Shown here in pieces: positions 12,819-61,870 of a DNA stretch of 64,000 bases. The stretch is from Candidatus Omnitrophota bacterium (lineage in GTDB: Bacteria > Ratteibacteria > UBA8468 > B48-G9 > JAFGKM01): NCBI GenBank assembly GCA_016928555.1, contig JAFGKM010000005.1, positions 9,758 through 73,757 of the forward strand, in the 5' to 3' direction. The notes under the pieces were generated by a model, which saw nothing but the letters and a program-made list of their open reading frames with translations, ran no database searches and was not told where the DNA came from. Each line of letters starts with the position of its first letter. Position 1 is the stretch's first letter. The position numbers were made by a program, and so were the translations under genes.

Positions 12819-12853
12819 ATATTTCTATTCTCATGATTCCATTGGGGGTAAAA

Positions 12854-13867
12854 ATGAGCAGAGAGCTGTTTCTTAAAAGCGTCGTTAGGGAAAATGATTC
12901 CGGCATGACTGTTTTCGGCACCGGAACCAGCATTGTATGCAGAGATGTTATGGAAAGCGTAAAAACTTATTTGCCGCAAGGACATATAGAACCTGAGGCG
13001 ATGTTCAACCTTGCTCTTGCCGGCCATACTCTTCTGGGATTCGACGTAGTCATGCCTCTTTTCAGCACATGCCATGAGGCAGCGTCCATGGGATGCAGCG
13101 TCAAGTGGGGCGGACCTGAAATGATGCCTGAGAGCGGCGGACCGATATTCAAAACATCCGATGATATAAATATTCCGGCAGACCTGCTTGCCCGGCCGGG
13201 TTGTGCCGTGCCTCTAAAAGCCATCGCTATGCTGCGAAAAGAGTTAGGAGATGAAGCGGCTGTTTGCGGCAAGGTTTTTGGAAGCTGGACTCAGGCGTAC
13301 CACTACTTCGGGATAGAAAATTTTCTTATCAAAACAATTACCGAGCCGGATGAGGTCAAACGGATTTTGGAAAAATTGATGCCCGTGACCATTCAATTTG
13401 CACAAGCTCAGATAGAGGCCGGTGCAGACTGTATTCTTCTCGGAGACCACGCCACACGTGATCTCTGCAGTCCTTCTTCCTATAAAGAATTTTTGATGGA
13501 CATGCATGCTCAACTGGCTGATGCTGTAAAAGCGCCTTTGATATTGCATATATGCGGCAATACTTCAGACCGCATCAGTTATATTTCCCGTACAGGCCTG
13601 CCGTGTTTTCACTGGGATACCAAGACAGGTTCACCGCAGGAAGTAAGGAATTTAGCCGGTGAAAAACTTTCGTTGATGGGAGGAATAAGCAATCTTAGAT
13701 TGCTTAACGGCACACCGGACGAGATAGCAGAGATGGCTTTTTCCGCGGCATGTGCCGATATAGATATAATAGGTCCCGAGTGCGCTATTCCCTTGACAAC
13801 GCCTCTTGCCAATCTTAAGGCAATAACTTCTATCGGCAGGAAAAAAAGAATAAGAAGGAAAATTTAG
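12854..13867 (+). CDS. uroporphyrinogen decarboxylase (URO-D)/MtaA-like family protein, paralog 1
   Basis: HICGNT...GGISN...P.EIA.. C-terminal architecture typical of the URO-D/MtaA/CmuA superfamily. Confidence 0.7.
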   Translation: MSRELFLKSVVRENDSGMTVFGTGTSIVCRDVMESVKTYLPQGHIEPEAMFNLALAGHTLLGFDVVMPLFSTCHEAASMGCSVKWGGPEMMPESGGPIFKTSDDINIPADLLARPGCAVPLKAIAMLRKELGDEAAVCGKVFGSWTQAYHYFGIENFLIKTITEPDEVKRILEKLMPVTIQFAQAQIEAGADCILLGDHATRDLCSPSSYKEFLMDMHAQLADAVKAPLILHICGNTSDRISYISRTGLPCFHWDTKTGSPQEVRNLAGEKLSLMGGISNLRLLNGTPDEIAEMAFSAACADIDIIGPECAIPLTTPLANLKAITSIGRKKRIRRKI

Positions 13868-15051
13868 AGGCTTCGTGCAAATTCTCTGATAGTCTCCAGC
13901 CTGTCGATTTCGGCGTCGGGCAGAACATTGTCTGAAACTTCCAGAATTAAAGGCTCGCCCCTTCTGTAGCTTTTTTTGAATTCTGCAAGGAAGTTTTTGA
14001 ATTGAGTATCGGAAAAAGATGATTTGAAAAGAATCGTTGAAGGTATTCCCCCGCAAATTACCTGTTCCGGACGCAAACTGTCTCTTATTTCCCTGTAGGT
14101 ATTTTTTACCATGGGGGCTGTACTTACAGCCTGCAGAATGTCTATGCCGCTCTGTCTGTATAACTCCAGCAATTGATTGTTTTCGCCGTCGCAGTGAGAG
14201 ATGACCAATCCGCCTTTTTCATGTATAATTTCGCATACATTATTCAAAAAAGGAAGGATATGTTCTCTGAAAAAAGGAGGAAAAGTGAGCATGCTGTCAT
14301 AGTTTCCTCCCCAGACTACTATGGGTTTCTTTGCACATTCTGTTACAGTTTTCAAAATACTCAATAAAAAACTTTCAAGCACTTTGCATAATGCGAGAAG
14401 TTTTTTTAGATTAAGCTTGTATTCTATATAAAAGAAAGAAGGATCCATTAAATCACGAAGAACGGCATGCATGGGACTTGCCGCCAGATAGCCGTAAACA
14501 GGGGGGAATCCTTCGTCTCCGACGGCCTCCAGTGACATGCGGTAATTTTCCGGTTTAGGGATAACCTTGACGGAAGCAAAGATATCCATAACCTTGCTAT
14601 AATCATCCTCGGACTTTATAAGATGCTCTTTTATAGGCGGTAAAGTTGAACCCTGCTTTTTTAACGTCTCGTCCATCAGGAAGCTGCCGGATAAATTACT
14701 TTCGGGGAGTTCGTATTTAACCCGTATCAAACCGTTATCGTTATTTACAATCGTCTTAAAAGAGGGGTCCAAAGCAACGTCATATGGAATATCTCTGGAT
14801 GAAAAAATGCCCAATAGCCTGTTTTGAAGAGAAATAATGTTGTAGTTATCGCTAAAATCAGGAAGAATTTTATTATAAGTGAGGTCAAGATTTTTAACAA
14901 TCTGTTTTAAGCTCAGGCCTTTAAATTTTTCCGGCAGGATCCCTTTATAAGAATTGCTGTAGTACCATATATCCATTCTTGGAGCAAAGGGAACGCCTTC
15001 CTGCATATTACCCCTCAATGCTTCCAAAAAAATCTCTTTTTTATTTTTCAT
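13864..15051 (-). CDS. URO-D-like family protein, paralog 2
   Basis: SHCDGEN...LEVSDNVLPDAEIDRL is a URO-D-like C-terminus. It is convergent with paralog 1 and overlaps it by 4 nt. Confidence 0.65.
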   Translation of the reverse strand: MKNKKEIFLEALRGNMQEGVPFAPRMDIWYYSNSYKGILPEKFKGLSLKQIVKNLDLTYNKILPDFSDNYNIISLQNRLLGIFSSRDIPYDVALDPSFKTIVNNDNGLIRVKYELPESNLSGSFLMDETLKKQGSTLPPIKEHLIKSEDDYSKVMDIFASVKVIPKPENYRMSLEAVGDEGFPPVYGYLAASPMHAVLRDLMDPSFFYIEYKLNLKKLLALCKVLESFLLSILKTVTECAKKPIVVWGGNYDSMLTFPPFFREHILPFLNNVCEIIHEKGGLVISHCDGENNQLLELYRQSGIDILQAVSTAPMVKNTYREIRDSLRPEQVICGGIPSTILFKSSFSDTQFKNFLAEFKKSYRRGEPLILEVSDNVLPDAEIDRLETIREFARSL

Positions 15052-24456: not shown

Positions 24457-25617
24457 TCAGCTTATGCCGAAAAAATTTCTGTAGGTTTTTACCACGGCAT
24501 AGTAGTTTTCAATCTTTACGTCTTCGTGTACGGAATGGCTTAAATGAAGGATGTGCCCTCCCTTTGTCCTTAGCCCGTGGTTGAGGCATTCTATGACTTC
24601 TTTTTCCGCCTCGGCAGGGCCTGCATTGCACATTGTGTATCTCGCGTCTATGTTTCCTATTATGCATATCCTGTCAGCAACGCCTTCTTCAATGAGCTTT
24701 TCCCATGTCATGCCGGCGGATTTGTCAACCTCTTTGTATCCGTCAATCCCAGAATTGAAGAAGAAATCGTCTTTTATGGGCCAGTGGTTTCCGTCGGAAG
24801 TGTAGACGGCAAATGCACCCATATTGTGTATCAGATTAACGTGTTCCCGCATTACCGGCAGAATGAATTTGCGGTAAAGGGCAGGGGAGATGAAAGGCCC
24901 TTTGTCACAGCTTACGTCTCCCCCTATAGCGACAACCCTGCATCCGTCTTCAATCATTTTTTTCGTGTATTCAAAACAACCCGCTTTCTGCATTTCAATC
25001 CAGCGGAGGTATATTTCCGGTTTTTCAAGCATCCACATCAGCATAAAAGGCTGGTAAAAAGCCACTCCTGTTCCCGCTCCGGATTCAGCCATATACACCC
25101 AGTCAATGCCGTCGGCTTTCGCGAACTCTCTCACTCTTTTCATGACAGGGCTGTATATACGCAGTTTTTCGCTGTTGCCGGTATTCCCGCCCCATGCTTC
25201 TATTTTCTTTATCATTTCTTCTTCTGAAATCTGCTGGGAATAAGAATGAGCTGGGTTTTCCGGTAACACAAGCTTGGTTCTTTCGTTGAAAATATAAGGC
25301 GTTCCCTCAAGAGTCCAGCTCTTTTTTCCGGTTTTTACGGGGCGCTTGCCCCTGATAAAACCGTGGCTTGTCAGCCGTACCATGTCCAAACCGAAAAAAC
25401 GGCATATCTTGTACTGCGCCTTAGCAGACGCCTCTATGAATTCTTCTTCGGGAACGCCTTCAGCCATCGCATCCCATGCCATTTCCGAATCCGTTGCGAC
25501 GGTTCTTCCGCAGATATCCCAGTGTATGGGTTGAAACGGCTGGAATATTTCAAACAACGGCGTTCTGTCCGGTTTCCCGTGTTTTAGAGCCGTGAATACT
25601 CTTTCTTTCCTGTCCAT
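24457..25617 (-). CDS. URO-D-like family protein, paralog 3
   Basis: URO-D superfamily barrel with ...ICIIGNIDARYTM...GGHILHLSHSV C-terminus; 386 aa. Confidence 0.6.
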   Translation of the reverse strand: MDRKERVFTALKHGKPDRTPLFEIFQPFQPIHWDICGRTVATDSEMAWDAMAEGVPEEEFIEASAKAQYKICRFFGLDMVRLTSHGFIRGKRPVKTGKKSWTLEGTPYIFNERTKLVLPENPAHSYSQQISEEEMIKKIEAWGGNTGNSEKLRIYSPVMKRVREFAKADGIDWVYMAESGAGTGVAFYQPFMLMWMLEKPEIYLRWIEMQKAGCFEYTKKMIEDGCRVVAIGGDVSCDKGPFISPALYRKFILPVMREHVNLIHNMGAFAVYTSDGNHWPIKDDFFFNSGIDGYKEVDKSAGMTWEKLIEEGVADRICIIGNIDARYTMCNAGPAEAEKEVIECLNHGLRTKGGHILHLSHSVHEDVKIENYYAVVKTYRNFFGIS

Positions 25618-42462: not shown

Positions 42463-42483
42463 AATCCGAGCGCCCCGATTTTT
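42463..42483. repeat. 21-nt direct repeat of the tRNA-Pro 3' end (AATCCGAGCGCCCCGATTTTT)
   Basis: Identical to 42343..42363. The intervening 100 nt also carries degenerate tRNA-3'-half-like pieces (GGTTCGAGCCGAGG). Confidence 0.7.
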
Positions 42484-43591
42484 AAGAGACTATCCCGCCT
42501 TCTTCGCTGAGATAGATGCCTTTTAATTTCATCTCGAGGCTTTGAGGATTTTCTACAAACTTCAGGGCTGTTTCCTCATCGATGAACTCCCTATGGACGA
42601 GGTCAATCAGCGCATCTTCAAAATCCTGCATGCCCTCGGCCTTGCCCGCTTTCATTGCCTTGAGTATTTTATCATCCTTGCCTTCGGATATCAGGCGGGA
42701 AATAAGAGGCGATACAAACATAATTTCGCATGCGGGGACGCGTTGGACTTCTTCTTTTACGGAAGGAAGCAGAAGCTGAGATACCACGGCCCTGAGGTGC
42801 ATGCTGATGTTTTTCCTCACCTGAGGCTGTCTTTCCTGGGGGAAGAAGTTTAAAAGCCGCGATATTGTGGACGATGCATTGGAACTGTGCAGTGTCCCGA
42901 ATACGAGGTGGCCCGTTTCAGCCGCCTGCAGCGCGAACTCAACAGTCTCTCCGTCTCTGATTTCTCCGGCAAGTATCACGTCGGGGTCCTGCCTGACTGC
43001 ATACCTTAGGGCCATTTTGAAGGAAGAAACGTCTATCCCGAGCTCTCTCTGCGTAATAACGGCCTTTTCATTCTTATACAGATATTCTATGGGGTCTTCA
43101 ATGCATAATATGTGGCATGTCCTGTTTTTGTTTATGTTGTTTATAACCGCCGCAAGCGTTGACGATTTTCCGCTTCCGGTCGGGCCGGTAACGAGGACAA
43201 GCCCGTTGAGAAACCCTGAAATTTTTGACGTTGAAGGCGGAAGGTTGAGGGATTCAAAATCCGGTATGACGTTTGAAATGCGCCTTGCCACGAGAGAAAG
43301 GGAGCCGCGCTGTTTAAACATGTTTATGCGGAATCTTCCCACATCTTTTACCCCCAGCGCCGTATCTATACTGCCCTGTTCTTCAAAGGCTTTTCTGTCC
43401 TGCTCTTTTTTGAGGAGTCCGCCGATTATTTCCTGAAGGACAGTGAACTGAAGAACGGGGATTTCTTCAAGCCGCACAAGCTCGCCCTTTATGCGCAGGA
43501 CCGGATGCGAACCGACCTGCAGATGTATATCGGAAGCGTTCTTTTCATACGATAAATGCATCAGTTTCAACAGCAATTCGTTGTTTTCCAT
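42482..43591 (-). CDS. pilT: type IV pilus retraction ATPase PilT
   Basis: Walker A GPTGSGKS, Asp box, His box; AIRNLIRE-like motif SRLISEGKDDKI; 369 aa. Confidence 0.9.
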   Translation of the reverse strand: MENNELLLKLMHLSYEKNASDIHLQVGSHPVLRIKGELVRLEEIPVLQFTVLQEIIGGLLKKEQDRKAFEEQGSIDTALGVKDVGRFRINMFKQRGSLSLVARRISNVIPDFESLNLPPSTSKISGFLNGLVLVTGPTGSGKSSTLAAVINNINKNRTCHILCIEDPIEYLYKNEKAVITQRELGIDVSSFKMALRYAVRQDPDVILAGEIRDGETVEFALQAAETGHLVFGTLHSSNASSTISRLLNFFPQERQPQVRKNISMHLRAVVSQLLLPSVKEEVQRVPACEIMFVSPLISRLISEGKDDKILKAMKAGKAEGMQDFEDALIDLVHREFIDEETALKFVENPQSLEMKLKGIYLSEEGGIVS

Positions 43592-45711: not shown

Positions 45712-46959
45712 ATGGAAGAGAAAAAGGTTAACAGGGGGTTGTTGTTTATTCTGGCTAACGGCGTCTACTTCTTTTCCTATTTCCACAGAGTAGCTGTGCC
45801 CGGAACGATTTTCAATGAGATACAGTCCGAATTTCTTTTGTCTGCCACTGCCGTAGCCGGCCTGAGCGCCCTTACCTTTTTCATGTATGGCGGGATACAG
45901 ATTTTTGGCGGAATCATGTCGGACCGTTTCGGAGGATTCCGTACTTTCTTCATGGGTAGTATACTGCTGAGTATAAGCTCTATCCTTTTCTCTTTTTCCT
46001 ATTCGCCCGCCATGCTTTTCATAACGCGTGCTTTTATCGGGCTCAGCGCAGGTATTGTCTTTACCAGTCTTATCAAAATCCTTAGTATAATGTATAAACC
46101 TGAAGATTTTCCTTTCTATCTGAGCATAATGAGTGTTCTCGGTTATACAGGAGGGGTTTTTGCGACTTTCCCTTTGGAGCGGGCGGTCAGCTTTATGGGA
46201 TGGAGGAACTCTTTCCTTCTGGCCGGACTTTTGTGTTTGATTATTGCGCTTTCCTTTAGGCCCTTTATGAAATCTGCCAGAAGGTCTTTTATACAGAAAA
46301 CAACATTTTCCCTGCGAGCGCTTCTTGCGGTTTTAAAAAATAAAAATTCACTTCCTGTAATCGTTTCTGGGCCCATTAATTTCAGCATATATTTTCTTTT
46401 CCAAACAACATTGGGAGCCAAGCATTTGCAGGATTCTTTTAACGTCACTCCTGCACGGGCGGCGTTTTTTACCTTTATTATGATGATAATAAATACGGGG
46501 TCCGTTTTTTTATCCGGTTATACATCCAAACTTATAGGCCTTCGCAGGCCGATTATACGTATTGCCGCAGGTGTTACCCTGTCCGCTTCAATACTGCTTT
46601 TTTTTAACATTTCATTTATATACAGCACAAAACTGGTCTTGTTTTCATATGTCCTCTTGGCTGTTTCCGCCGCCGCCGCCCCTGTTTTTATTACTACCAT
46701 GAAAGAGATGAATACGATTGAGGTTGCCGCTACCTCTGTCGGATTTCTGAATTCAATAGTATATATTGTCCTGTCTTTGCTGGTTTACGCCGCTGGCCGC
46801 ATACTTGATGTTTTCAGTCATGCTGCGGTTGAAATCGCTGGAATAATTATCTATCCCGGTTTTGCATACAGAATGGTTTTTCTTGTATGTATCATGCTGG
46901 CAGTTTGTTCTTTCCTTGTCTGCTTCCCGATAAAAGAGACGGGCAGCGGAAAACAATGA
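45712..46959 (+). CDS. MFS transporter
   Basis: 12 transmembrane helices; 415 aa; MFS-type motif G(x)LSDRFGG after the second helix. Confidence 0.75.
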   Translation: MEEKKVNRGLLFILANGVYFFSYFHRVAVPGTIFNEIQSEFLLSATAVAGLSALTFFMYGGIQIFGGIMSDRFGGFRTFFMGSILLSISSILFSFSYSPAMLFITRAFIGLSAGIVFTSLIKILSIMYKPEDFPFYLSIMSVLGYTGGVFATFPLERAVSFMGWRNSFLLAGLLCLIIALSFRPFMKSARRSFIQKTTFSLRALLAVLKNKNSLPVIVSGPINFSIYFLFQTTLGAKHLQDSFNVTPARAAFFTFIMMIINTGSVFLSGYTSKLIGLRRPIIRIAAGVTLSASILLFFNISFIYSTKLVLFSYVLLAVSAAAAPVFITTMKEMNTIEVAATSVGFLNSIVYIVLSLLVYAAGRILDVFSHAAVEIAGIIIYPGFAYRMVFLVCIMLAVCSFLVCFPIKETGSGKQ

Positions 46960-46989
46960 AGTTTTTTTCCTCATTTCAAAACAATTGAT

Positions 46990-46995
46990 TATAAT
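46990..46995 (+). promoter_or_regulatory. -10 hexamer TATAAT about 24 nt upstream of tRNA-Arg
   Basis: TTGATTATAAT context. Candidate promoter for the tRNA-Arg/tRNA-His pair. Confidence 0.35.
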
Positions 46996-47018
46996 ATCAA
47001 TATGCAGAGAATTTTTAC

Positions 47019-47092
47019 GCGCCTGTAGCTCAACAGGATAGAGTATTGGGCTTCGAACCCAAGGGTTGCCCGTTCGACTCGGGCCAGGCGCA
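47019..47092 (+). tRNA. tRNA-Arg (anticodon TCG)
   Basis: Manual fold: acceptor GCGCCTG/CAGGCGC, D-arm, anticodon loop CTTCGAA, T-arm GCCCG-TTCGACT-CGGGC, discriminator A. Confidence 0.85.
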
Positions 47093-47185
47093 CCGGCAAA
47101 CCGTTATGGTTTATTTTAGCGCCAAAATGTGGTAGAATTACATTCTGTTTTAGCCGGGAATAAGCATTGTCGATTTGTTGTTTAT

Positions 47186-47258
47186 GGTGGGTGTAGCTCA
47201 GGGGCAGAGCACTAGACTGTGGCTCTAGGAGCCGGGGGTTCGAATCCCCTCACCCACC
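47186..47258 (+). tRNA. tRNA-His (anticodon GTG) with encoded G-1
   Basis: Manual fold: extra 5' G(-1) pairing with discriminator C73, acceptor GTGGGTG/CACCCAC, anticodon loop CTGTGGC, T-loop TTCGAAT. Confidence 0.9.
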
Positions 47259-47292
47259 CTGGATTTTTCTCATTTGCCACTGAAAGAAAAAA

Positions 47293-47333
47293 GGGTCAGG
47301 CATGAAAAAGCTCTGACCCCTTTTATGTTTTTT
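47293..47333. terminator. bidirectional intrinsic terminator (GGGTCAG-loop-CTGACCC flanked by A-run and T-run)
   Basis: The hairpin is followed by TTTTATGTTTTTT on the + strand and preceded by AAAAAA. It serves the tRNA-His transcript and the convergent BNR-repeat gene. Confidence 0.6.
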
Positions 47334-47338
47334 AGGTT

Positions 47339-48742
47339 TTACCTTAATGAAACCAGCCATGCGAGAGGACGCAGGACTGTTCTTACCAGCATGCGCACAG
47401 CAGGCCTTCTGCTGATGTATGATGCGGCAGAGGGGCTGTGTTTGTAATACCACCTGACAAATGCCCTGCCTGCCCTGTTTGTCAGCAGGTGCCTGTCGCG
47501 GAAATCCTGAAGCTTCATTACTTCCGACGCCATCGGTGTGCCGTATGCCGCGGTGGCTATGAAACACCAGCCGTCGCTGCGGGCAAGGTCAACAAATTGC
47601 CCAAAATTGGCGTAGATACTCTGGAAACTGCTGAAATACTGGGACCATACCGCCACAACTTTGTCCCCGCTCACCGCCACCTGAGGGCCATATGCATCCC
47701 CTGTCGTATTGTTTTCCAGCAGTTGGGCCGTTCCCCATGTTGCGCCGCCATCGGTGGAATAGTTGGAGTAAATACTAACGGAACTGCCGTCAGACTGGAG
47801 CCATACCGCCGCAACCTTGTTTCCGTCCATCGCCACCTGGGGGGACTCTGCATCATAGTTAGCAGTTTCCAGCAGTTGAGCCGTTTCCCATGTCGCACCG
47901 CCGTCGGTGGAATAGCGGGCGTGGATATTATTGTAAGTGCCGTCAGACTGTCGCCACACCGCAACAACTTTGTCCCCGCTCATCGCCACCTGGGGGTAAT
48001 ATGCATCATAGTCAGCAGTTTCCAGCAGTTGGGCCGTTTCCCATGTCGCGCCGCCATCGGTGGAATAGTTGGAGTAGATACTAGCATAACTGCCGCTCCG
48101 CTGGTACCACACCGCAACAACTTTGTCCCCGCTCATCGCCACCTGGGGGTCATCTGCATCATAGTCAGCAGTTTCCAGCAGTTGGGCCGTTTCCCATGTC
48201 GCGCCGCCATCGGTGGAGTAGCGGGCATAGATATTATCGTCAGTGCCGTCAGACTGGGGCCACACCGCCACAACTTTGTCCCCGCTTATCGCCACCTGGG
48301 GGTAATCTGCATTATAGTCAGCAGTTTCAAGCAGTTGGGCCGTTTCCCATGTCGCGCCGCCGTCGGTGGAGCAGTTGGAATAGATACTATTGTAAGTGCC
48401 GTCCCTCTGGAGCCATACCGCCACAACTTTGTCCCCGCTTATCGCCACCTGAGGGGAATATGCATCATAGTTAGCAGTTTCCAGCATTTGGGCCGTTTCC
48501 CATGTCGCACCGCCGTCGGTGGAGCAGCTGGAATAGATATTCAAGTAACTGCCATCATACTGTTGCCACACCGCCACAACCTTGTCCCCGCTCATCGCCA
48601 CCTGAGGGTCATAGGCCTCATATTCAGAAGTTTCCAGCAGTTGCGGAGCAGTATTCCAGATAAGTTCCGGAGCCCCTTCAAGAGTAGTAGATACAAACAT
48701 ACCGATAAACAATGTAAAACACACCATAAAGATTCTTTTCAT
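47339..48742 (-). CDS. secreted BNR/Asp-box repeat (sialidase-like beta-propeller) protein with conserved CFIATAAYG C-terminal domain
   Basis: Signal peptide and seven tandem 47-aa repeats, each with an Asp-box STDGGATW. The C-terminal 75 aa are almost identical to the C-terminus of the 49757..52162 gene. Confidence 0.75.
   Translation of the reverse strand: MKRIFMVCFTLFIGMFVSTTLEGAPELIWNTAPQLLETSEYEAYDPQVAMSGDKVVAVWQQYDGSYLNIYSSCSTDGGATWETAQMLETANYDAYSPQVAISGDKVVAVWLQRDGTYNSIYSNCSTDGGATWETAQLLETADYNADYPQVAISGDKVVAVWPQSDGTDDNIYARYSTDGGATWETAQLLETADYDADDPQVAMSGDKVVAVWYQRSGSYASIYSNYSTDGGATWETAQLLETADYDAYYPQVAMSGDKVVAVWRQSDGTYNNIHARYSTDGGATWETAQLLETANYDAESPQVAMDGNKVAAVWLQSDGSSVSIYSNYSTDGGATWGTAQLLENNTTGDAYGPQVAVSGDKVVAVWSQYFSSFQSIYANFGQFVDLARSDGWCFIATAAYGTPMASEVMKLQDFRDRHLLTNRAGRAFVRWYYKHSPSAASYISRRPAVRMLVRTVLRPLAWLVSLR
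47590..48655. repeat. seven tandem ~141-bp coding repeats (high nucleotide identity)
   Basis: Near-identical 141-nt units are visible directly in the sequence (e.g. ...caccgccacaactttgtccccgct.atcgccacctgggggt.atctgcat.atagtcagcagtttc.agcagttgggccgtttcccatgtcgc.ccgcc.tcggtgga...). Confidence 0.8.
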
Positions 48743-49068
48743 CTGATATCCTCCATTTGACTTTGAAAAAAAAGCTGTTATCCTGCCGACCTTTTTTCAC
48801 CAACAGTGATATTAAACACCCCCGCCCCGGGAATGTCAAGTTTAAATTAGCACCCACAAATACCTCATAAATACAGCAAATCCTCTCCCCACAGCAACTA
48901 CAGATGATTGTTTACTATACAAGCTATCTCAAGGATTTCGGGGCTTTATTTTTTATATCAGGGGAGGGAAGGGGCGAGGATACGGTGCATTTAGGAAATA
49001 AATTTCGATTCATGATGTCAGGAAAGTGATCTACTGTGGTTCCTTTAGAACTCAGGTATGGAGAAAAC

Positions 49069-49099
49069 AGAGGTTCGAATAGTGTTACCCAGGGGACCC
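49069..49099. repeat. tRNA-3'-end-like junction element copy (AGAGGTTCGAATAGTGTTACCCAGGGGACCC)
   Basis: It contains a T-loop-like GGTTCGAAT. It recurs at 49650, 53114 and, degenerate, 52316, each time just 3' of a minus-strand cassette. Confidence 0.6.
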
Positions 49100-49129
49100 G
49101 GACTTCACCTTTACATTCCAATTTGTGTA

Positions 49130-49411
49130 TTATCGGTATGCTTCTTTTCTGTGCCTGACCCGAAAAATTCTTATCTCTCTTGCTTTATCCTTAATTTCAT
49201 AAATGATGCGATAATCCCCGACTTTGAGCCTGTAATCGTTTTTGGAGCCAACTATTTTTTTGGAATGCAATGGCCTGGGATTTGTTTTCAGGTTATTAAT
49301 AGAAGGAAGAAGTTTTTGAAATAAAACGGTTGGTAATTTTTTCAAATCTCTTTCAGCATGTTTTTCAATAAGAATTTCATACACTTTTGTAGTCCTGTAA
49401 AAAATTGTCAA
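49130..49411 (-). CDS. ParE/RelE-family toxin
   Basis: YRLKVGDYRIIYEIKDKAREIRIFRVRHRKEAY C-terminal signature. A possible GTG start at 49384 would remove the overlap with the antitoxin. Confidence 0.8.
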   Translation of the reverse strand: MTIFYRTTKVYEILIEKHAERDLKKLPTVLFQKLLPSINNLKTNPRPLHSKKIVGSKNDYRLKVGDYRIIYEIKDKAREIRIFRVRHRKEAYR

Positions 49412-49583
49412 ATTTTCTAAATTTCATGGATGTTTTACGCATTGCCTTCAATGTCTTAAGGTCTGCAATATCTTCTAGTCTTTCCAGTATTTCTTCATAT
49501 GTGTCCATTGACAAAATTACTCCAACAGGTTTTCCGTTCTTAACTATAATCTCTTTCGGTTTTTCCAGAAGTGTATTATCCAC
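49377..49583 (-). CDS. Phd/YefM-like antitoxin (GTG start)
   Basis: 68 aa. A GGGGAGG Shine-Dalgarno sits 6 nt before GTG 49583. It lies upstream of and overlaps the ParE-like toxin. Confidence 0.6.
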   Translation of the reverse strand: MDNTLLEKPKEIIVKNGKPVGVILSMDTYEEILERLEDIADLKTLKAMRKTSMKFRKFDNFLQDYKSV

Positions 49584-49649
49584 GTTTTCCTCCCCATTTT
49601 ATATGTTACTATTTTACCATAGAATTCAGATAAGAGAAACAGCAACAAA

Positions 49650-49688
49650 AGAGGTTCGAATAGTGTTACCCACCCTGGGATTTTTCTC
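49650..49688. repeat. hybrid junction element: element-type left half plus tRNA-His-3'-type right half (AGAGGTTCGAATAGTGTTACCCACCCTGGGATTTTTCTC)
   Basis: The left half matches copies at 49069 and 53114. The right half matches the tRNA-His 3' end and downstream flank (47246..47275). Identity continues about 150 nt through the terminator and the paralog C-terminus. Confidence 0.65.
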
Positions 49689-49707
49689 GTTTGCCTCTGA
49701 AATGAGA

Positions 49708-49755
49708 AAGGGGCCGGACCTTTTACAGTCCTGGCCCCTTTTATGTTTTTTAGGT
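49708..49755. terminator. bidirectional intrinsic terminator, paralogous to 47293..47333
   Basis: AAGGGGCC...GGCCCCTT stem followed by TTATGTTTTTT; same sequence context as the terminator after tRNA-His. Confidence 0.55.
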
Positions 49756-49756
49756 T

Positions 49757-52162
49757 TTACCGGATCGAAACCAGCCATGCAATGGGACGAAGGACTGTTC
49801 TCACCAGCATGCGCACAGCAGGCCTTCTGCTGATGTACGATGCGGCAGATGGGCTGTGTTTGTAATACCACCTTACGAAAGCCCTGCCTGCTCTGTTTGT
49901 CAGCAGATGCCTGTCGCGGAAGTTGCGCAGTTTGACAACCTCCGAAGCCATCGGCGTTCCGTATGCCGCGGTGGCTATGAAGCAGTTACCGTTGCCGGTT
50001 CCGAAAAACGGGCATGATTTTTTGCCTTCAAACTTGCTTACAAAAGCGTCAGCAAAACCCCCGTTATATGCCGTATCATATGCGCCAGGTGTTACGGGGA
50101 AATCTGTAGAGTATGTCTCTCCAGCGACAAACAGGTTATTCCGGCTGTCCATGGCAATGGCATTAGCATAATCATAATCACCGCCGCCTAGGAAGGTAGA
50201 ATAGAGAAGTTCCGTCAAGTTATTATCAAACTTGCTTATGAAGCCATCAAAAATACCATTGAAGACCGGAGCATAGGCGTCGAGTGTTGTCGGGAAAGAT
50301 TCTGACTCGGTATTTCCCGCCACAAATACATTATCCTGATTGTCTATGGCGACGGCATAACCATTATCTTCATTAATGCCGCCCATGAATGTAGAAGCAA
50401 GAAGTTGTGTCAGGTCATTGTCAAATTTGCCTAAAAAAACATCACTGTGTCCGTTATACACCTCATCATAGGCGCCTGTCGTTGCAGGGAAGTTCTCTGA
50501 AGAAGTCCGTCCTGTTATAAAGACGTTGTCCTGGCTGTCTATGGTTACGGCATAACCAGTATCTTCATTAATGCCGCCCATGAATGTGGAAGCAAGCAGT
50601 TGTGTCAGGTCATTTTGAAACTTGCTTACAAAGGTGTCGCCCCCGCCGTTATATCCTTCATCATAAGCGCCGGTCGTTGCGGGGAAGTTCTCTGAAGAAG
50701 TCATTCCTGTTATAAAGACGTTGTCCTGGCTGTCTATGGCTATAGAATAAGCATAATTCCATTCACTGCCGCCTATGAAGGTTGAGGCAAGCAGTTGTGC
50801 CAGGTTTTTATCGAACTTGCCTACAAAAGCGTTGCTATTGCCGTTAAGTGTTTCAGCATATGCGCCATCCGTTACAGGGAAATCTTCTGACGAGGTAGTC
50901 CCTGCGACAAATACATTATCCATAGTGTCTATCGCAAGGCCGTCTGCACGGTCAAAGTCCTCGCCGCCCAGAAAGGTAGAGACGAGCAGTTCTGACAGAC
51001 TATTATTGAATTTACCTATAAAGGCATCCCAACTGCCGCCGTTATAATTTTCATTATAAGCCTCGTCCGTTGCAGGAAAGTCTTCTGAAGATGTTTGTCC
51101 TGCAAACAGGATATTGTTTTCTTTGTCTATAACCATGAAGTTAATAGTATCGTTGCTATCGCCTCCTATAAAGGTGGAAGCAAGCAGTTGTGTCAGGTCA
51201 TTATTAAACTTGCTTATAAAGACATCATTGGCTCCCCCCTTATACTCTGTCTCGTAGGCACCCTGTGTTGTCGGGAAGTCTTCTGATGCAGTATTCCCTG
51301 CTACAAAGATATTGTCGTTGCTGTCTATGGCGATAGTTGTGGCATAATCAGAATAGCTGCCGCCTATGAAGGTTGAGGCAAGCAAGGGGTCTATCACAAG
51401 CGGCTTTCTCCTGTCATACCTGTTTACGGCAAAGGAATAGGTGTCTTCGGAAATAATCCTATAAGAAGTTTTAATCCCTTTCATGCCTCCCCGTATTTTC
51501 TGGTATGCAAAAGGTTTTGTGAAAGATATATCTCCGAGTTCGGTCTTTACCACCAACTGTCCGTCTTTGTCTACTTCCAGTCCATGTCCTCCCTCAACCT
51601 TTATCCGGATGTCTTTTACTGCTCCGCCCGGCATGACATGAAAAATCTTTTCGGCATTATTGCCCCGTGCACGAAGGGTCAACTCTATGTTCTCGTATAC
51701 CTCTCCGAGGCTGACTGCATTGTAGGATTCAATATTCCTCTGCCACTTTGCCGGGTCATTTCCCTTAAAATAGTTTATCCTTGCCGATGTTTTTTCCCGT
51801 CCTGTTACATCTGCCTGTCCCGCTCCTACAAGATACTCTTTCAATGCTACGCCTATAACTGTCTCTTTCCGTATTCCTGCACGTACTCCTTTTTTCCCGG
51901 TATTCCCCGCCCCTTCGGATACCTTGGGCAGAGAGTAGACTGTTTCTCCCTTATCCGTTACAAAAAGAGTGCCGCCGAATGTCCGCGCGTAATACGCCAC
52001 TTCCCCTGGATACTGTCCGCTGTTCTTGAGAAAGGGGATGCTTGCCAAAGAGAGCTTTAACTTAACCTGCTGTTCTTCAACAGCCCTGTCTGAAACAGCG
52101 GCGAAACTTATGCCCACAAACAGAATCATCAAAATACCGAATATCTTTTTCAATGCCAACAC
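49757..52162 (-). CDS. secreted SBBP-type beta-propeller repeat protein with conserved CFIATAAYG C-terminal domain
   Basis: Signal peptide, an N-terminal domain of about 260 aa, seven repeats of about 52 aa (LLASTFIGGS..D.GYAIAIDSQDNVFVAGNTSSEDFPTT.GAYDE.YNGG.DAFVSKF), then the shared C-terminal 75 aa. Confidence 0.75.
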   Translation of the reverse strand: MLALKKIFGILMILFVGISFAAVSDRAVEEQQVKLKLSLASIPFLKNSGQYPGEVAYYARTFGGTLFVTDKGETVYSLPKVSEGAGNTGKKGVRAGIRKETVIGVALKEYLVGAGQADVTGREKTSARINYFKGNDPAKWQRNIESYNAVSLGEVYENIELTLRARGNNAEKIFHVMPGGAVKDIRIKVEGGHGLEVDKDGQLVVKTELGDISFTKPFAYQKIRGGMKGIKTSYRIISEDTYSFAVNRYDRRKPLVIDPLLASTFIGGSYSDYATTIAIDSNDNIFVAGNTASEDFPTTQGAYETEYKGGANDVFISKFNNDLTQLLASTFIGGDSNDTINFMVIDKENNILFAGQTSSEDFPATDEAYNENYNGGSWDAFIGKFNNSLSELLVSTFLGGEDFDRADGLAIDTMDNVFVAGTTSSEDFPVTDGAYAETLNGNSNAFVGKFDKNLAQLLASTFIGGSEWNYAYSIAIDSQDNVFITGMTSSENFPATTGAYDEGYNGGGDTFVSKFQNDLTQLLASTFMGGINEDTGYAVTIDSQDNVFITGRTSSENFPATTGAYDEVYNGHSDVFLGKFDNDLTQLLASTFMGGINEDNGYAVAIDNQDNVFVAGNTESESFPTTLDAYAPVFNGIFDGFISKFDNNLTELLYSTFLGGGDYDYANAIAMDSRNNLFVAGETYSTDFPVTPGAYDTAYNGGFADAFVSKFEGKKSCPFFGTGNGNCFIATAAYGTPMASEVVKLRNFRDRHLLTNRAGRAFVRWYYKHSPSAASYISRRPAVRMLVRTVLRPIAWLVSIR

Positions 52163-52315
52163 TCCTTTCGGGTTTTTACCCGTTGTTTAAGCAGGAACAT
52201 AAAGCTGACATTTTTTATATGATGAAACCTTTTTCAGTTGTTGTCAATTATTTTTTATCTTGCAGAAGGAGAGGCAGGCGTTTATTTTCTCAAGAAACTC
52301 TGGATGGGCAATAAC

Positions 52316-52345
52316 AGAGGTTTGAACCTGCTCCCCCAGGGACCC
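52316..52345. repeat. degenerate junction element copy (AGAGGTTTGAACCTGCTCCCCCAGGGACCC)
   Basis: Related to the 49069 and 53114 elements at both ends. Confidence 0.4.
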
Positions 52346-52542
52346 AGTTTCGTAATCTTCTTTGAAGTGAAGGGGATGAGAAGAGAGCGAAGACGTTTGG
52401 CTCCAATGAGTAAGAGGAGCCGTACGAATGGCCGACCCGAGCCGTATTGGGAGGCGAGCGGCGCCGGTCCAACTGAAGATTCTTCCTTATTGAACCGAGA
52501 GCGTGTGCAGTATTTCTGGAAAAGATAATCTAAGATATATTG

Positions 52543-52800
52543 TTATCTGGATTTCCTGTATATATCTTTCCTATGTCCGATTGCTTCTGCAAAGATTTCG
52601 TCTTTTTCTATTGTGTAAATAATCCGATAATCTCCGACCCTGTAGGAAAATTCCCCTGTTAGCTCTCCGGTTAGTTTTTTACCTGCAAAAGGACTATCTT
52701 TCAATATACGCAGTTTTTCTTTAACTCTTATCTGAATTTTTTGTGGCGACTTCTCGTATTTCTTTAGAAATGCATTTGTCAGAAAGAGTTGATATTTCAC
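52543..52800 (-). CDS. ParE/RelE-family toxin
   Basis: FSYRVGDYRIIYTIEKDEIFAEAIGHRKDIY motif; 85 aa. It overlaps the antitoxin by 4 nt. Confidence 0.8.
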   Translation of the reverse strand: MKYQLFLTNAFLKKYEKSPQKIQIRVKEKLRILKDSPFAGKKLTGELTGEFSYRVGDYRIIYTIEKDEIFAEAIGHRKDIYRKSR

Positions 52801-53057
52801 TGATTGCTCCCAAAATATTCTTCGTATGAGCTGTACCTTCTATTTTTTATATCTTCTTTGGCCGCGACTATATCTCTGAGTAATTTCCTGTCAGCCAGTA
52901 TTTCCAGAGTTTCAATTTCTTCCAGACTAACTATTATTGCTTTTGCTTTTGACCTTTGAGTTATAATATATCTTTCTCCCAGTGAAATTTCTTTTATTAT
53001 TTGCGGCAGTTTTTCTCTTGTTGCCACAATTCCTATAACTTTATCCATAAGTAACAC
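52797..53057 (-). CDS. Phd/YefM-family antitoxin
   Basis: 86 aa; KAIIVSLEEIETLEILAD is typical of Phd/YefM. It lies upstream of the toxin. Confidence 0.75.
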   Translation of the reverse strand: MLLMDKVIGIVATREKLPQIIKEISLGERYIITQRSKAKAIIVSLEEIETLEILADRKLLRDIVAAKEDIKNRRYSSYEEYFGSNQ

Positions 53058-53113
53058 CTCCGTTATTAATTGTACGGTTAATCGTACACATTGTCAATGG
53101 ATGGAAAAGCAAA

Positions 53114-53144
53114 AGAGGTTCTAATAGTGTTACCCAGGGGACCC
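53114..53144. repeat. junction element copy (AGAGGTTCTAATAGTGTTACCCAGGGGACCC)
   Basis: One mismatch relative to the 49069 copy. It is preceded by similar ATGGA.AAA..A context. Confidence 0.6.
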
Positions 53145-53161
53145 AGCTGCTTTTCCCGATT

Positions 53162-53614
53162 TTAATGTTGTGGAATGTTCTTGAGAGAATCTGCATCCGC
53201 TTTGTCTTTCAATCTTCCTGTAGATTCTTTATTTTTTATCAGGTTTTCCTTGGAAAGAAAAGGTATCTCCAGATCTTCAAGCAGGATTATCTGTTTTGTT
53301 TCATAAGCAGTGTTAAAGTCAACGCCGTCAATATGGGTAATAATGTCTATTCTGCGCGGCACAACGCCTATCTGGAATACTATCTCTTTTTCCGCAAAGG
53401 TCTTTTCATCGATATCTTTCAGGTATGTACCGAAGTCAATAAGAGATTTATAGACTTTTTTTGAATTTTCAGCGCTTGCTTCAACCCATATGTCGAAGTC
53501 TCCTGTCGCCCTCGGATATCCATGGGCGGCCATTGCATAGGCTCCGACCACAAGAAATTTAACCCTGTTTTTTAAGAAGATTTGTAATATGTCTTTGTAG
53601 TCTTCGTTTAACAT
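53162..53614 (-). CDS. nucleotidyltransferase-fold protein (minimal NTase-like, hGG.A...HG..R.T.D.D motif)
   Basis: FLVVGAYAMAAHGYPRATGDFDIWV. 150 aa. It overlaps the upstream small ORF. Confidence 0.5.
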   Translation of the reverse strand: MLNEDYKDILQIFLKNRVKFLVVGAYAMAAHGYPRATGDFDIWVEASAENSKKVYKSLIDFGTYLKDIDEKTFAEKEIVFQIGVVPRRIDIITHIDGVDFNTAYETKQIILLEDLEIPFLSKENLIKNKESTGRLKDKADADSLKNIPQH

Positions 53615-53756
53615 AGTATGAATCCCTGATTGACCAGAGTTCTTCCGTCAACGGCCACATGAAGGATATGCATTCCAAGGGAGATGCATCTGTATAGGAG
53701 TCATTCTCTTTAGACATTTTCTTAAGTCTTGTCTTAGTTTTCATTACTGTTTTCAT
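53559..53756 (-). CDS. small hypothetical protein (65 aa), apparently leaderless, co-transcribed with the NTase-fold gene
   Basis: ATG 53756 lies 6 nt downstream of an extended -10 TGcTATAAT (53763..53771, minus strand). The ORF overlaps the NTase-fold gene start by 55 nt in another frame. Confidence 0.35.
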   Translation of the reverse strand: MKTVMKTKTRLKKMSKENDSYTDASPLECISFMWPLTEELWSIRDSYYVKRRLQRHITNLLKKQG

Positions 53757-53762
53757 AAATAT

Positions 53763-53771
53763 ATTATAGCA
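53763..53771 (-). promoter_or_regulatory. extended -10 TGcTATAAT driving a leaderless small ORF
   Basis: Minus-strand reading ...tgcTATAATatatttATGaaaaca... Confidence 0.4.
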
Positions 53772-53841
53772 TAAATGACAGGGAAATAGAAGCAAAAATG
53801 GAGGGTTCAGGATTTGAGACTAAATATCCCAAAGGCATTGC

Positions 53842-54048
53842 TTATCTTCTATATTCCTGTAAAAAGTCTTCTAATTTTCTGAACTTTAGAGAATTTTGTC
53901 TCATTGCTTTTAACATTTTCAGGTCTTCAATGTCTTTCAACCTCTCAAGGATTTCTTCATATGTTTCTATAGACAAAATTACTCCAACAGATTTTCCGTT
54001 TTTAACTATAAGCTCTTTTGGCATATACATAAGTGCATTTTCCGTCAT
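53842..54048 (-). CDS. orphan Phd/YefM-like antitoxin, paralog of 49377..49583
   Basis: About 80% nucleotide identity to the 49377..49583 antitoxin over the conserved core. It is followed not by a ParE toxin but by the small-ORF/NTase pair. Start taken at ATG 54048. Confidence 0.5.
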   Translation of the reverse strand: MTENALMYMPKELIVKNGKSVGVILSIETYEEILERLKDIEDLKMLKAMRQNSLKFRKLEDFLQEYRR

Positions 54049-54576
54049 TTCCTTTACTGATTTTTTTGATGTTTTACTATAGATGCAGAATTCAGACAAT
54101 GAAAAGGGTCAAAATCTTTATCCTTAGCTGCTCGTTTTTTCCCTCCTGCGCGGCTGTTTTAAAAACCGGTAATAAAAATTCTGTAGTGAGGAAAGTTACG
54201 CGACAATTTCAGCGCGGAGTCCGCCAACGCTTTAGTGGAGGAAATGGCCGACCCGATGCGTTTCGAAAGCCGAGACGGCGCCGAATCCCCCTATGGAATC
54301 AGGTCTACCTGAAAGCGTTGCTGCACAAGGGTTTGCAGTGATATAAGTATTTGGAATGATACTACCAGACCTCATTCTTACTGCCGATTTTATCTGCGGG
54401 AATTAGAGAATTTGACAGGGCAGGGATGCTGTGAAAAAATATATTTTAACTTTACTTGTGTGGATAACTGGAATAAATAGACGAAAGGATATTGCAACAA
54501 AATTGCTCCTGTTTCCCGTTCATCCAGAAGAAAAACAGTATTCCATCAATTATTTACCGGCCGAGAGGCATAGATC

Positions 54577-55482
54577 ATGAAAGAAATTTGGATTGCATTT
54601 GGATTAACGTTTTTCGCGGGAATGGCTACCGGGATCGGCAGTGTCATCGCGTTCACTGCAAAGAGAACGAACTATCGTTTTCTCTCTATGGCAACGGGGT
54701 TCTCGGCAGGCGTGATGCTCTATGTTTCATTTGTGGAGATATTCGTCAAGGCCGGAGAATCTGTTGCGCAACGATATGGCGACTACTGGGGACACTGGAT
54801 CAACGCCGCCTCATTCTTCGGCGGGATGTTGCTGATCGGGGTGATCGACAACTTGATCCCAGCCGCCGAGAACCCGCACGAAACGCACGCGGAAGCCGAG
54901 ACCATGCCGCTCCACAATCCGCTCGCGTTCCCACCCGACTTCCGCAAAGCCGCGGCAGGTGAATCAGCGCGGGGAGAAGGGTTTCACGATCACAGCGTCA
55001 GGCATCATAAGCTGATGCGGATGGGGGTGTTCACGGCCATAGCCATAGGCATTCACAATTTTCCGGAAGGCTTGGCCACATTCCTTGCCGTCCTGCATGA
55101 TCCACACCTGGGCCTCGCCATTGCAGTTGCGATTGCACTGCACAACATTCCCGAAGGGATCAGTGTATCGGTTCCGATCTTCTACGCCACAGGAAGCCGT
55201 AAGAGAGCATTCGTCTACTCTGTGCTCAGCGGATTGGCCGAGCCGATCGGGGCCGGCATTGGATACCTTGCGATCCGGTTGTTCCTGGCAGGCAACGCCG
55301 GGGTGATTCCGTCGGAGGTAATGGGTATTCTTTTCGGGGGCGTGGCGGGCATTATGGTGTACATCAGCCTGGATGAATTACTTCCGACAAGCAGGGCATA
55401 CGGAAAAGGTCACGACAGTCTATTCGGACTGGTAGCAGGCATGCTGGTGATGGCTTTGAGTCTGTTGTTGATGAAGCAATGA
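54577..55482 (+). CDS. zupT: ZIP family zinc transporter
   Basis: ZupT-like His-rich loop (HETHAEAE...HDHSVRHH) and conserved HNFPEG / HNIPEG motifs. It lies in a visibly GC-rich patch. Confidence 0.85.
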
Positions 55483-61192: not shown

Positions 61193-61870
61193 ATGGTCAG
61201 GATGAAAAGGCAGTTGAGCGGTAGCAGGGAAGGCTTCACGCTGATAGAGCTGCTTGTGGTGGTGGCTATCATAGCAATACTGGCGGCAATGCTTCTGCCG
61301 GCTCTGAGCAGAGCGCGTGAGAGAGCCAGGGCGGCGGTTTGCTTAAGCAACCTCAAGCAGATAGGTCTGGCGATGTTTATGTATGCGGACGACTGGTTTG
61401 AATACTTCGGACCGAGTGCAAAACTCGAAGGTAACAAAACTATAGAAGCCCCTTATATAGCCTACGGAGCTCCGAGGAAACTGTGGAAATGCCCCAGCGA
61501 CAGGCTTCCGCGAACATATCAGGCTCCCGAAAGTGCCGCATACGGGCCCAGAAGCTATGCTATAACCAATGGGATTATAGGCTGGAATGTGGATCCCGTA
61601 AAGAGGCCCAGAATAAACCAGCAGTCGACAACCTCACTGATTTGCGACTATTGGCACGAACAGAACAATATGTACGGGACCCGGCAGTGTATCGTTGACT
61701 ATAATTACGTTCAGGATCCGCCCGGTGGCGGGAGGTTCCGGTATCATAATGACGGAGCAAACTATTTCTTTGTTGACGGCCATGCCAGCTGGTACGGGCT
61801 CGACCCCACGTTCGGTTTCAACTGGACGACATACGGAGATTATAACAAAAACTTTTTCTGTCTTTGGTAA
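61193..61870 (+). CDS. prepilin-type N-terminal cleavage/methylation domain protein with DUF1559 (PVC-type pseudopilin)
   Basis: [25 protein letters not shown] and C-terminal ...[16 protein letters not shown]. An AGGGAGGAG Shine-Dalgarno is present. Confidence 0.8.

Follow-up and report, generated by a model that had tools for sequence, protein, structure and literature searches.

Two exported propeller proteins of a Candidatus Omnitrophota bacterium that share a CFI-box-CTERM tail and its duplicated 3' flank next to tRNA-His

Gene A and gene B, two neighbouring genes for secreted propeller proteins, lie on a 75.5-kb contig of a metagenome-assembled genome (MAG) of Candidatus Omnitrophota, of which a stretch of 64 kb, here called the window, was analysed. 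The window is ordinary chromosome, with genes such as MnmG, MutS, MutL, GlnA and glycogen genes. From tRNA-His to a ZIP transporter gene (54577) all genes are on the minus strand, and their order starting from tRNA-His is gene A, ParE/Phd module 1, gene B, ParE/Phd module 2, orf150 and an orphan Phd (Table 1). An initial annotation of this DNA had described two secreted propeller genes with unrelated bodies and a common 75-residue tail, and this description is borne out, both open reading frames (ORFs) being present on the minus strand at the positions given. The term paralogous, which it also used for the two proteins, is correct for the tails and not for the bodies.

Table 1. Features of the locus (positions in the window) and of related loci in other genomes (designated L)
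Feature	Position	Strand	Description
tRNA-Arg (UCG)	47019-47094	+	upstream neighbour of tRNA-His; ARAGORN, Rfam
tRNA-His (GUG)	47187-47259	+	intact; ARAGORN; Rfam 65.7 bits
Site 0	47237-47260		tRNA-His 3' end GGTTCGAATCCCCTCACCCA; outer boundary of the duplicated segment
Shared 3' flank, copy A	47237-47341	-	stop, identical 25 nt, hairpin 47288-47324, spacer, tRNA-His 3' end
Gene A	47339-48742	-	467 aa; signal peptide, seven-bladed BNR/Asp-box propeller, CFI-box-CTERM
CFI-box-CTERM module, gene A	47342-47566	-	75 aa, CFIATAAYG...RPLAWLVSLR; NF041770 1.1e-27, 95.7 bits; predicted helical
Site 1	49065-49091	+	27-mer AAACAGAGGTTCGAATAGTGTTACCCA, then GGGGACCCGG; 39 nt past the ParE1 stop
Toxin-antitoxin module 1	49130-49583	-	ParE-family toxin 49130-49411, Phd/YefM antitoxin 49377-49583; GC 33%
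Site 2	49646-49672	+	same 27-mer; left part as at sites 1 and 3, right part equal to the tRNA-His downstream flank
Shared 3' flank, copy B	49653-49759	-	stop, identical 25 nt, hairpin 49707-49741, spacer, decayed tRNA-His 3' fragment
Gene B	49757-52162	-	801 aa; signal peptide, DUF7948, seven SBBP repeats, CFI-box-CTERM
CFI-box-CTERM module, gene B	49760-49984	-	75 aa, ...RPIAWLVSIR; NF041770 3.5e-28, 97.2 bits
Toxin-antitoxin module 2	52543-53057	-	ParE-family toxin 52543-52800, Phd/YefM antitoxin 52797-53057; GC 34%
Site 3	53110-53136	+	27-mer with one mismatch, then GGGGACCCAG; 26 nt past the orf150 stop
Low-GC (36%) island end	53162-54099	-	orf150 and orphan Phd-like antitoxin
Tandem CFI pair	L031 6615-11095		tails 93% identical (nt), pS 0.22
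Tandem CFI pair	L064 1073-4087		tails 94% identical (nt), pS 0.13
Tandem CFI pair	L021 4463-8345		tails 89% identical (nt), pS 0.18
GspC-like loci	L005 3054-3854; L011 1130-1912; L054 6483-7274; L066 8356-9120; L068 8281-9066; also L022, L029		

Gene A, which corresponds to NCBI MBN1444650.1, is publicly labelled 'exo-alpha-sialidase'. Its N-terminus is a Sec-type signal peptide, MKRIFMVCFTLFIGMFVSTTLEG/A, read from the sequence and modelled by AlphaFold2 (AF2) as a helix at residues 2-19, and Pfam finds BNR_2 (4.4e-23) and BNR in its body. The body is built by seven units of 51 residues, encoded by 153-nt DNA repeats that are mutually 83-87% identical, a likeness that suggests recent expansion or concerted evolution of the repeats. 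Seven Asp boxes had been counted in the initial annotation; only six (S-x-D-x-G-x-T-W) are found, although there are seven units and seven PQVAxSGxK strands. The AF2 model, made with 30 homologs, is a seven-bladed propeller with a predicted local distance difference test score (pLDDT) above 90 (overall pLDDT 87), which is joined to a helical tail by a low-confidence linker at residues 388-391. In a Foldseek search with this model the matches are sialidase-type and seven-bladed lyase propellers, with TM-scores of 0.41-0.57 and identity of at most 20%, and sialidases are the best of them (E about 1e-12). Gene A is similar to GH33 sialidases and other BNR propellers in its Asp-box repeats and in its propeller fold, but its seven blades are near-identical, while GH33 enzymes have six irregular ones, and the RIP motif (F/Y-R-I-P) of sialidases is absent from its sequence, so that the catalytic signature (RIP motif and Arg triad in a six-bladed propeller) is not found. 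The public label is probably an over-annotation. The island has a single homopolymer of at least 8 nt, an A8 tract at 48766-48773 (T8 in the coding strand) that lies 24-31 nt ahead of the gene A start codon.

Gene B corresponds to NCBI MBN1444653.1 (798 aa; the NCBI start is three codons later), and a Sec-type signal peptide can also be read at its N-terminus. DUF7948 (PF25778) matches residues 44-260 (4.7e-51, 174.3 bits) and SBBP (PF06739) matches with 2.4e-38 and 130.2 bits, both above the gathering score, and the LLxSTFxGG unit occurs seven times. This architecture is common to thousands of homologs, and other homologs of gene B carry at the C-terminus the Por_Secre_tail of the type IX secretion system (T9SS), dockerin, CARDB and similar domains. 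The C-terminus in this family is thus an interchangeable address module. The T9SS tail (Por_Secre_tail, PF18962) and dockerin occupy the same position on DUF7948 and SBBP proteins as the CFI-box domain and are likewise lineage-specific, interchangeable tags; they differ from it in fold and machinery, and a T9SS or cellulosome context is not present at this locus. The NCBI annotation of MBN1444650.1 and MBN1444653.1 makes no mention of the CFI-box domain, and a search of PDB by sequence and profile with gene A, gene B and the CFI module gives no match.

From the Cys to the last residue, 70 of the 75 residues (93%) of the two modules are identical, and the tail can be called near-identical, as it first was, in protein but not in DNA, where identity is about 85%. 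Both modules cover positions 1-68 of the 69 positions of the NCBIfam profile NF041770, whose cutoff is 40 bits, and in both the domain ends 7 residues before the stop. Both have all invariant columns of the family (C, F, A, T, A, G, L, D, G, P...), together with CFIATAAYG and the FRD, G-R-A-F and YY..SP motifs; a Pfam scan of both proteins finds no Pfam model for the CFI-box tail. The profile search that the initial annotation had proposed for the module was run and, judged by its outcome, the module belongs to the known family NF041770 and is not a globular enzyme. Both proteins, which are already in NCBI nr, are further members of a catalogued domain family.

The two modules are far more basic than the average of this family, with a net charge of +10 in gene A and +12 in gene B against a family mean of +2.3, and they follow very acidic propeller bodies, whose net charges are -36 and -41. 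Their last helix is amphipathic, with an Arg every 3-4 residues, and the chain stops right after the domain, with no transmembrane (TM) helix and no hydrophobic stretch. Gene A and gene B are thus typical of NF041770 in their full-length high-scoring match, signature motifs and C-terminal position, but they belong to the minority without a TM helix and basic tail. AF2 models the module as all-helical, with four helices and a pLDDT of 78 for the module alone and of 63-77 in the context of gene A, and a Foldseek search of this model against PDB finds no match better than E=5. Lipobox-type lipidation of the CFI Cys was rejected for gene A and gene B, in which the residues at position -1 are W and N. 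An intein- or Hedgehog-like autoprocessing, considered for its C-F-hydrophobic start, is unsupported; the module has about 70 residues and is all-helical.

A family profile was made from the window copies and 25 homologs, and its counts are of representatives of clusters at 50% identity. At E<=1e-3 the search retrieves 30,553 representatives, of which 24,012 remain at E<=1e-10, and a scan with one genome per species gives at least 599 matches. Among the matches listed are Omnitrophota, Elusimicrobia, Nitrospirota, Chloroflexota, Desulfobacterota, Gammaproteobacteria, Planctomycetota, Firmicutes and archaea, and the carrier proteins have from about 90 to more than 2,700 residues. Architectures were counted in the 146 best-scoring representatives, in about 94% of which the domain is C-terminal. 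A hydrophobic or TM helix with an Arg/Lys tail comes after the domain in 95 of them (65%). In 25, as in gene A and gene B, the protein stops at the domain, in 17 the domain is extended by a short tail that is not hydrophobic, in 8 it is internal, and one representative lacks a recognisable motif. Gly makes up 33% and Ser 14% of the 12 residues that precede the Cys. The TM-less form predominates in the nearest relatives, mostly from Omnitrophota and Elusimicrobia. The TM helix with basic tail fits a membrane-proximal anchoring role for the CFI-box family. The sorting or anchoring function first proposed for the module agrees with the C-terminal position of NF041770 and with these 95 proteins, but gene A and gene B have no such helix. 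A variable passenger on a constant C-terminal module, also part of that proposal, is indeed seen, but as a trait of the whole family.

The CFI-box domain is not always attached to an exported passenger, because members with a zinc ribbon and members that lack a signal peptide exist. In two archaeal proteins it follows a zinc ribbon and other members have no signal peptide; some members (P0023, P0015, P0018, P0006 and P0020) are tiny, and one consists of a lipoprotein signal peptide and the domain alone.

Two CFI genes occur together in 10 of the 80 related loci. In several tandem pairs of other genomes the bodies align at only 24-30% identity and the tails are near-identical in DNA (Table 1, with pS as the proportion of synonymous differences). 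To judge from these sequences, sharing of tails at the DNA level between neighbouring CFI genes is recurrent, and the L031, L064 and L021 tails suggest that gene conversion or module duplication has happened repeatedly in the family. The 3' flanks of these three pairs are not similar, and the pair formed by gene A and gene B is an older case, unusual in taking in the flank. CFI genes do not as a rule have a tRNA neighbour: of about 90 CFI ORFs, 2 have one within 1.5 kb. A GspC-like gene (TM helix and PDZ) lies near the CFI gene in 7 of the 80 loci (T2SSC 31 bits in L054), and five such genes start within about 50 nt of the CFI stop; some CFI proteins may be linked to type II secretion. In the window the only genes of type II kind are a T2SSE-family ATPase (42482-43591) and a pseudopilin-like gene (61193-61870).

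The similarity between gene A and gene B goes beyond the coding sequence. BLAST finds a single match of 329 nt between 47237-47563 and 49653-49981 (84.5%, E 1.6e-90). In the module coding DNA 195 of 225 nt are identical (86.7%), and third codon positions account for 24 of the 30 differences. The homologous segment reaches 105-107 nt beyond the stop, where 85 of 107 positions agree (79%), and the first 25 nt after the stop codon are the same in both copies. At both ends of the segment identity falls abruptly to background, with 52% ahead of the Cys codon and 42% past the tRNA-like GGTTCGAA, and the longest exact run common to both copies has 35 nt. The hairpin of copy A is a bidirectional intrinsic terminator with A- and T-tracts (-21.4 kcal/mol, z -3.6), and that of copy B has a different stem sequence that pairs nevertheless (-27.2 kcal/mol, z -5.2); a simple scanner missed both terminators for their loop size or bulge, and RNA folding was used instead. 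Terminators and flanks, at first called the same, are therefore homologous at 79% and not identical.

In copy A the segment has its outer boundary at the T-loop of the intact tRNA-His, and therefore copy B holds a decayed tRNA-His 3' end (GGTTCGAATAGTGTTACCCACC vs GGTTCGAATCCCCTCACCCACC); an Rfam scan of 46000-55000 detects nothing but the two tRNAs. The alignment of the two 3' ends, proposed in the initial annotation, thus follows the homology through the terminator into a tRNA-His fragment. About 330 bp, from the Cys codon to the tRNA-His T-loop, were duplicated as DNA, and since non-coding DNA and a piece of tRNA are included, the likeness is due to segmental duplication and not to convergence.

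The copying dates far back, and strong purifying selection acts on both tails. The coding comparison gives a proportion of synonymous differences (pS) of 0.417, a proportion of nonsynonymous differences (pN) of 0.039, a synonymous divergence (dS) of about 0.61 and a ratio of nonsynonymous to synonymous divergence (dN/dS) of about 0.065, and with such values of dS and pS the copy is not recent. In the claim of a recent module exchange or gene conversion, the exchange at the DNA level stands, supported by the flank and the tRNA fragment, and the recent date does not. With 79% identity the flank is significantly better conserved than the synonymous sites (Fisher p=0.0035), and since its stems also fold in spite of their differences, the 3' flank is itself constrained.

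The lineage of gene A, with its BNR propeller, is the likely donor of the tail, and gene B would have received it within this genome, because BNR and CFI relatives carry the same tail subtype and gene A adjoins the real tRNA-His. These relatives, from other metagenomes (P0306, P0313 and the fragment P0002), have the same TM-less tail ending in ...RPLAWLVSLW/R, and P0306, with 469 aa, is 52% identical to gene A over its full length. All six other SBBP and CFI proteins among the best 120 gene-B homologs have a TM-type tail. The tRNA-His neighbourhood of gene A is itself derived, because in two other organisms its relatives adjoin a gene of 167 aa instead. This 167-aa gene (L088 1357-1860, L001 544-1047), which is N-terminally anchored and has a weak SnoaL_4 match, is absent from the window.

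The explanation that we regard as probable is that gene A and gene B encode two exported propellers that share an old DNA copy of a TM-less CFI-box tail, used for retention at the envelope. Gene B would have acquired the module, the terminator and the scrap of tRNA from the gene A lineage, either through recombination inside or beside a tail that was already present or by stepwise insertion of gene blocks at tRNA-His. The Sec signal peptide would export each protein, the acidic propeller (-36 or -41) would be the variable working or binding part, and the basic helical tail (+10 or +12) would hold the protein non-covalently at the cell envelope, bound to an anionic membrane or envelope surface or paired with TM-bearing CFI-box proteins. 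Going by the family architectures, the CFI tail can be proposed with moderate confidence to be a membrane- or envelope-proximal retention module, which in most family members would lie just outside a TM anchor at the C-terminus, and the TM-less, hyper-basic copies probably hold acidic propellers at an anionic envelope surface.

Several points weigh against this explanation. The anchoring role is deduced from architecture, and gene A and gene B lack precisely the TM helix that makes it natural; the pLDDT of the module is only 63-78, and searches of the literature and of PDB find no experiment, paper or solved structure for the CFI-box domain. A purely extracytoplasmic anchor also fits poorly with P0006, P0015, P0018 and P0020, which have a zinc ribbon or no signal peptide. 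The direction of transfer is based on three relatives and the tail subtype, and in two related organisms the BNR and CFI gene is followed by the conserved 167-aa gene and not by tRNA-His.

The DNA around gene A and gene B holds further repeated elements. The toxin-antitoxin (TA) blocks have a guanine-plus-cytosine (GC) content of 33-36%, against 46% in the window, and the TA modules, with orf150 and the orphan Phd, look like foreign DNA. Module 1 matches Pfam ParE_toxin (2.7e-13) and TIGR01552, and module 2 has a strong promoter-like site at 53097-53069. The gene orf150 (53162-53614, MBN1444656.1) has no family match in Pfam or NCBIfam, and the orphan Phd-like antitoxin (53842-54099) is 69% identical in amino acids to Phd1. 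Elsewhere in the window, three paralogs of the URO-D family are found within 13 kb (12833-13867, 13864-15051 and 24457-25617), two of them adjacent and convergent.

A 27-mer, CAAAAGAGGTTCGAATAGTGTTACCCA, is present in three copies with 0-2 mismatches, where 0 are expected by chance, and every copy is just past the 3' end of a gene block. Its right-hand arms are of two classes, CCCTGGATTTTTCTC... and GGGGACCC.G, the latter at two copies. Sites 1-3 resemble GGTTCGAAT.....T.ACCCA of tRNA-His, although similarity is higher among the repeats than between repeats and tRNA. Site 2 looks like a recombinant junction, because its right side is the DNA that follows the real tRNA-His. The 3' ends of tRNAs are classic integration targets, and serial site-specific insertion at the tRNA-His 3' end can be considered here, though it is rather unlikely. 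Site 3 lies within a 9-bp inverted repeat (GGAAAAGCA ... TGCTTTTCC, 53103-53156), which is absent at site 1. An attC-like folding of sites 1-3 was rejected, with folding z of -0.5 to +2.6 on either strand. A 22-nt site pattern has zero matches in GTDB genomes, JGI metagenomes and IMG/VR, a 24-nt flank pattern has zero matches in JGI metagenomes, and in a BLAST of the tRNA-His flank against phages the tRNA-His itself is the only match.

Another explanation of the locus takes the region from tRNA-His to about 54100 as integrase-less blocks (gene A / TA1 / gene B with TA2 / orf150 with Phd3) inserted serially at the tRNA-His 3' end, with the 27-mer as the element-side half of an attachment site and the flank, terminator and CFI tail as the site-proximal arm. 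This is possible but unlikely. It agrees with the three 27-mers at the 3' ends of blocks, with two of them bracketing TA1, with arms in only two classes and with site 2, a clean chimera that has the pattern of an attR-like junction. The low GC of the TA blocks, the single orientation of all blocks, a 3' flank more conserved than synonymous sites and the relatives of gene A that are not beside tRNA-His elsewhere point the same way. Variable and mobile-cargo loci are reported to be abundant in Omnitrophota genomes (bioRxiv 10.64898/2026.06.07.730766). Like tRNA-targeted islands, the locus comes directly after a tRNA, with displaced repeats similar to the tRNA 3' end at the distal junctions, low-GC cargo and toxin-antitoxin genes, and it resembles integron cassette arrays in its small co-oriented blocks, many of which are toxin-antitoxin modules, with a repeated site after each block. 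But its blocks are very small for such islands (0.6-3.5 kb), its repeats are closer to each other than to the tRNA, its sites do not fold into attC-type hairpins, and in the window there is no intI or attI and, by Pfam and NCBIfam, no integrase or recombinase within or next to the island. The GTDB, JGI and IMG/VR scans reveal no independent occurrence or empty site, the 27-mer is just upstream of TA promoters and could be regulatory, and three copies at one locus may come from duplication and drift. The specific form of this idea, a stack of tiny integrase-less blocks with half-sites that mimic tRNA-His, mobilised in trans and with the CFI tail arm proximal to recombination, is doubtful.

Retention at the envelope could also be replaced by processing, in which a putative enzyme would recognise the CFI-box and either cleave the protein close to or at the invariant Cys or link this Cys to lipid or wall, a possibility that we hold to be quite improbable. 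PEP-CTERM/exosortase, PGF-CTERM/archaeosortase, GlyGly-CTERM/rhombosortase and LPXTG/sortase resemble the CFI system in placing a C-terminal motif on unrelated exported proteins, and the C-terminal position in about 94% of the 146 representatives, the Gly/Ser-rich linkers before CFIATAAYG (33% G, 14% S) and the TM helix and Arg/Lys cluster after the motif in most family members (65%) give a tripartite look. Tripartite sorting signals are about 25-35 residues long; their motif comes immediately ahead of the TM helix, and they have a known dedicated enzyme, which the CFI-box is not known to have. In the CFI-box, by contrast, a folded helical domain separates the motif by about 68 residues from the TM helix, and in gene A, gene B and 25 of the 146 representatives there is no such helix, so that these two genes lack the combination of motif, TM helix and basic cluster. 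Sortase, exosortase, archaeosortase and rhombosortase are not found among the about 55 ORFs of the window (Pfam/NCBIfam), and no enzyme neighbour is conserved across the 80 related loci, where only histidine kinases and the GspC-like gene (7 loci) recur. The adhesin or phase-variable surface-protein system put forward in the initial annotation, in which recent gene conversion would swap propellers onto a constant anchor, is very unlikely and largely refuted. A tail common at the DNA level would suit it, as would the near-identical tails on dissimilar bodies in other genomes, but dS is about 0.6, exact runs reach only 35 nt, and both genes are complete, each with its own start, signal peptide and terminator. 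Phase variation is unsupported because no integrase, invertible element or significant repeat tract was found: silent cassettes, an invertible promoter and a recombinase are absent from the locus and window, inverted repeats at the locus are not convincing and the simple repeats amount to one A8 tract. That mis-joined strains or loci produced the shared tail during assembly is the least credible possibility and extremely improbable, even if the source is a MAG and contigs of related genes often break in propeller repeats. The copies differ at about 15% of positions and have at most 35 identical bases in a row, which leaves no room for collapsing or confusing them; each reads in frame with the body of its own gene, and the differences are concentrated at third codon positions, as in evolved paralogs.

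The core finding, that of two exported propellers with an old copied tail, is ordinary, consisting of two members of a catalogued family and an old segmental duplication. CFI-box-CTERM is, however, among the most widespread C-terminal modules on exported prokaryotic proteins, and the locus is a clean natural example of this module moving as DNA between unrelated passengers. Gene A and gene B define a TM-less, hyper-basic subtype that requires a different anchoring explanation. Neighbouring CFI genes, to judge from this locus and the tandem pairs, often have tails whose DNA is kept similar, and it can be argued that these tails must therefore work together or with a shared partner. If the blocks are mobile, they would represent a new integron-like shuffling of envelope proteins in Omnitrophota, and if the 27-nt junctions are attachment sites, they would bear on how episymbiotic Omnitrophota vary their surface.

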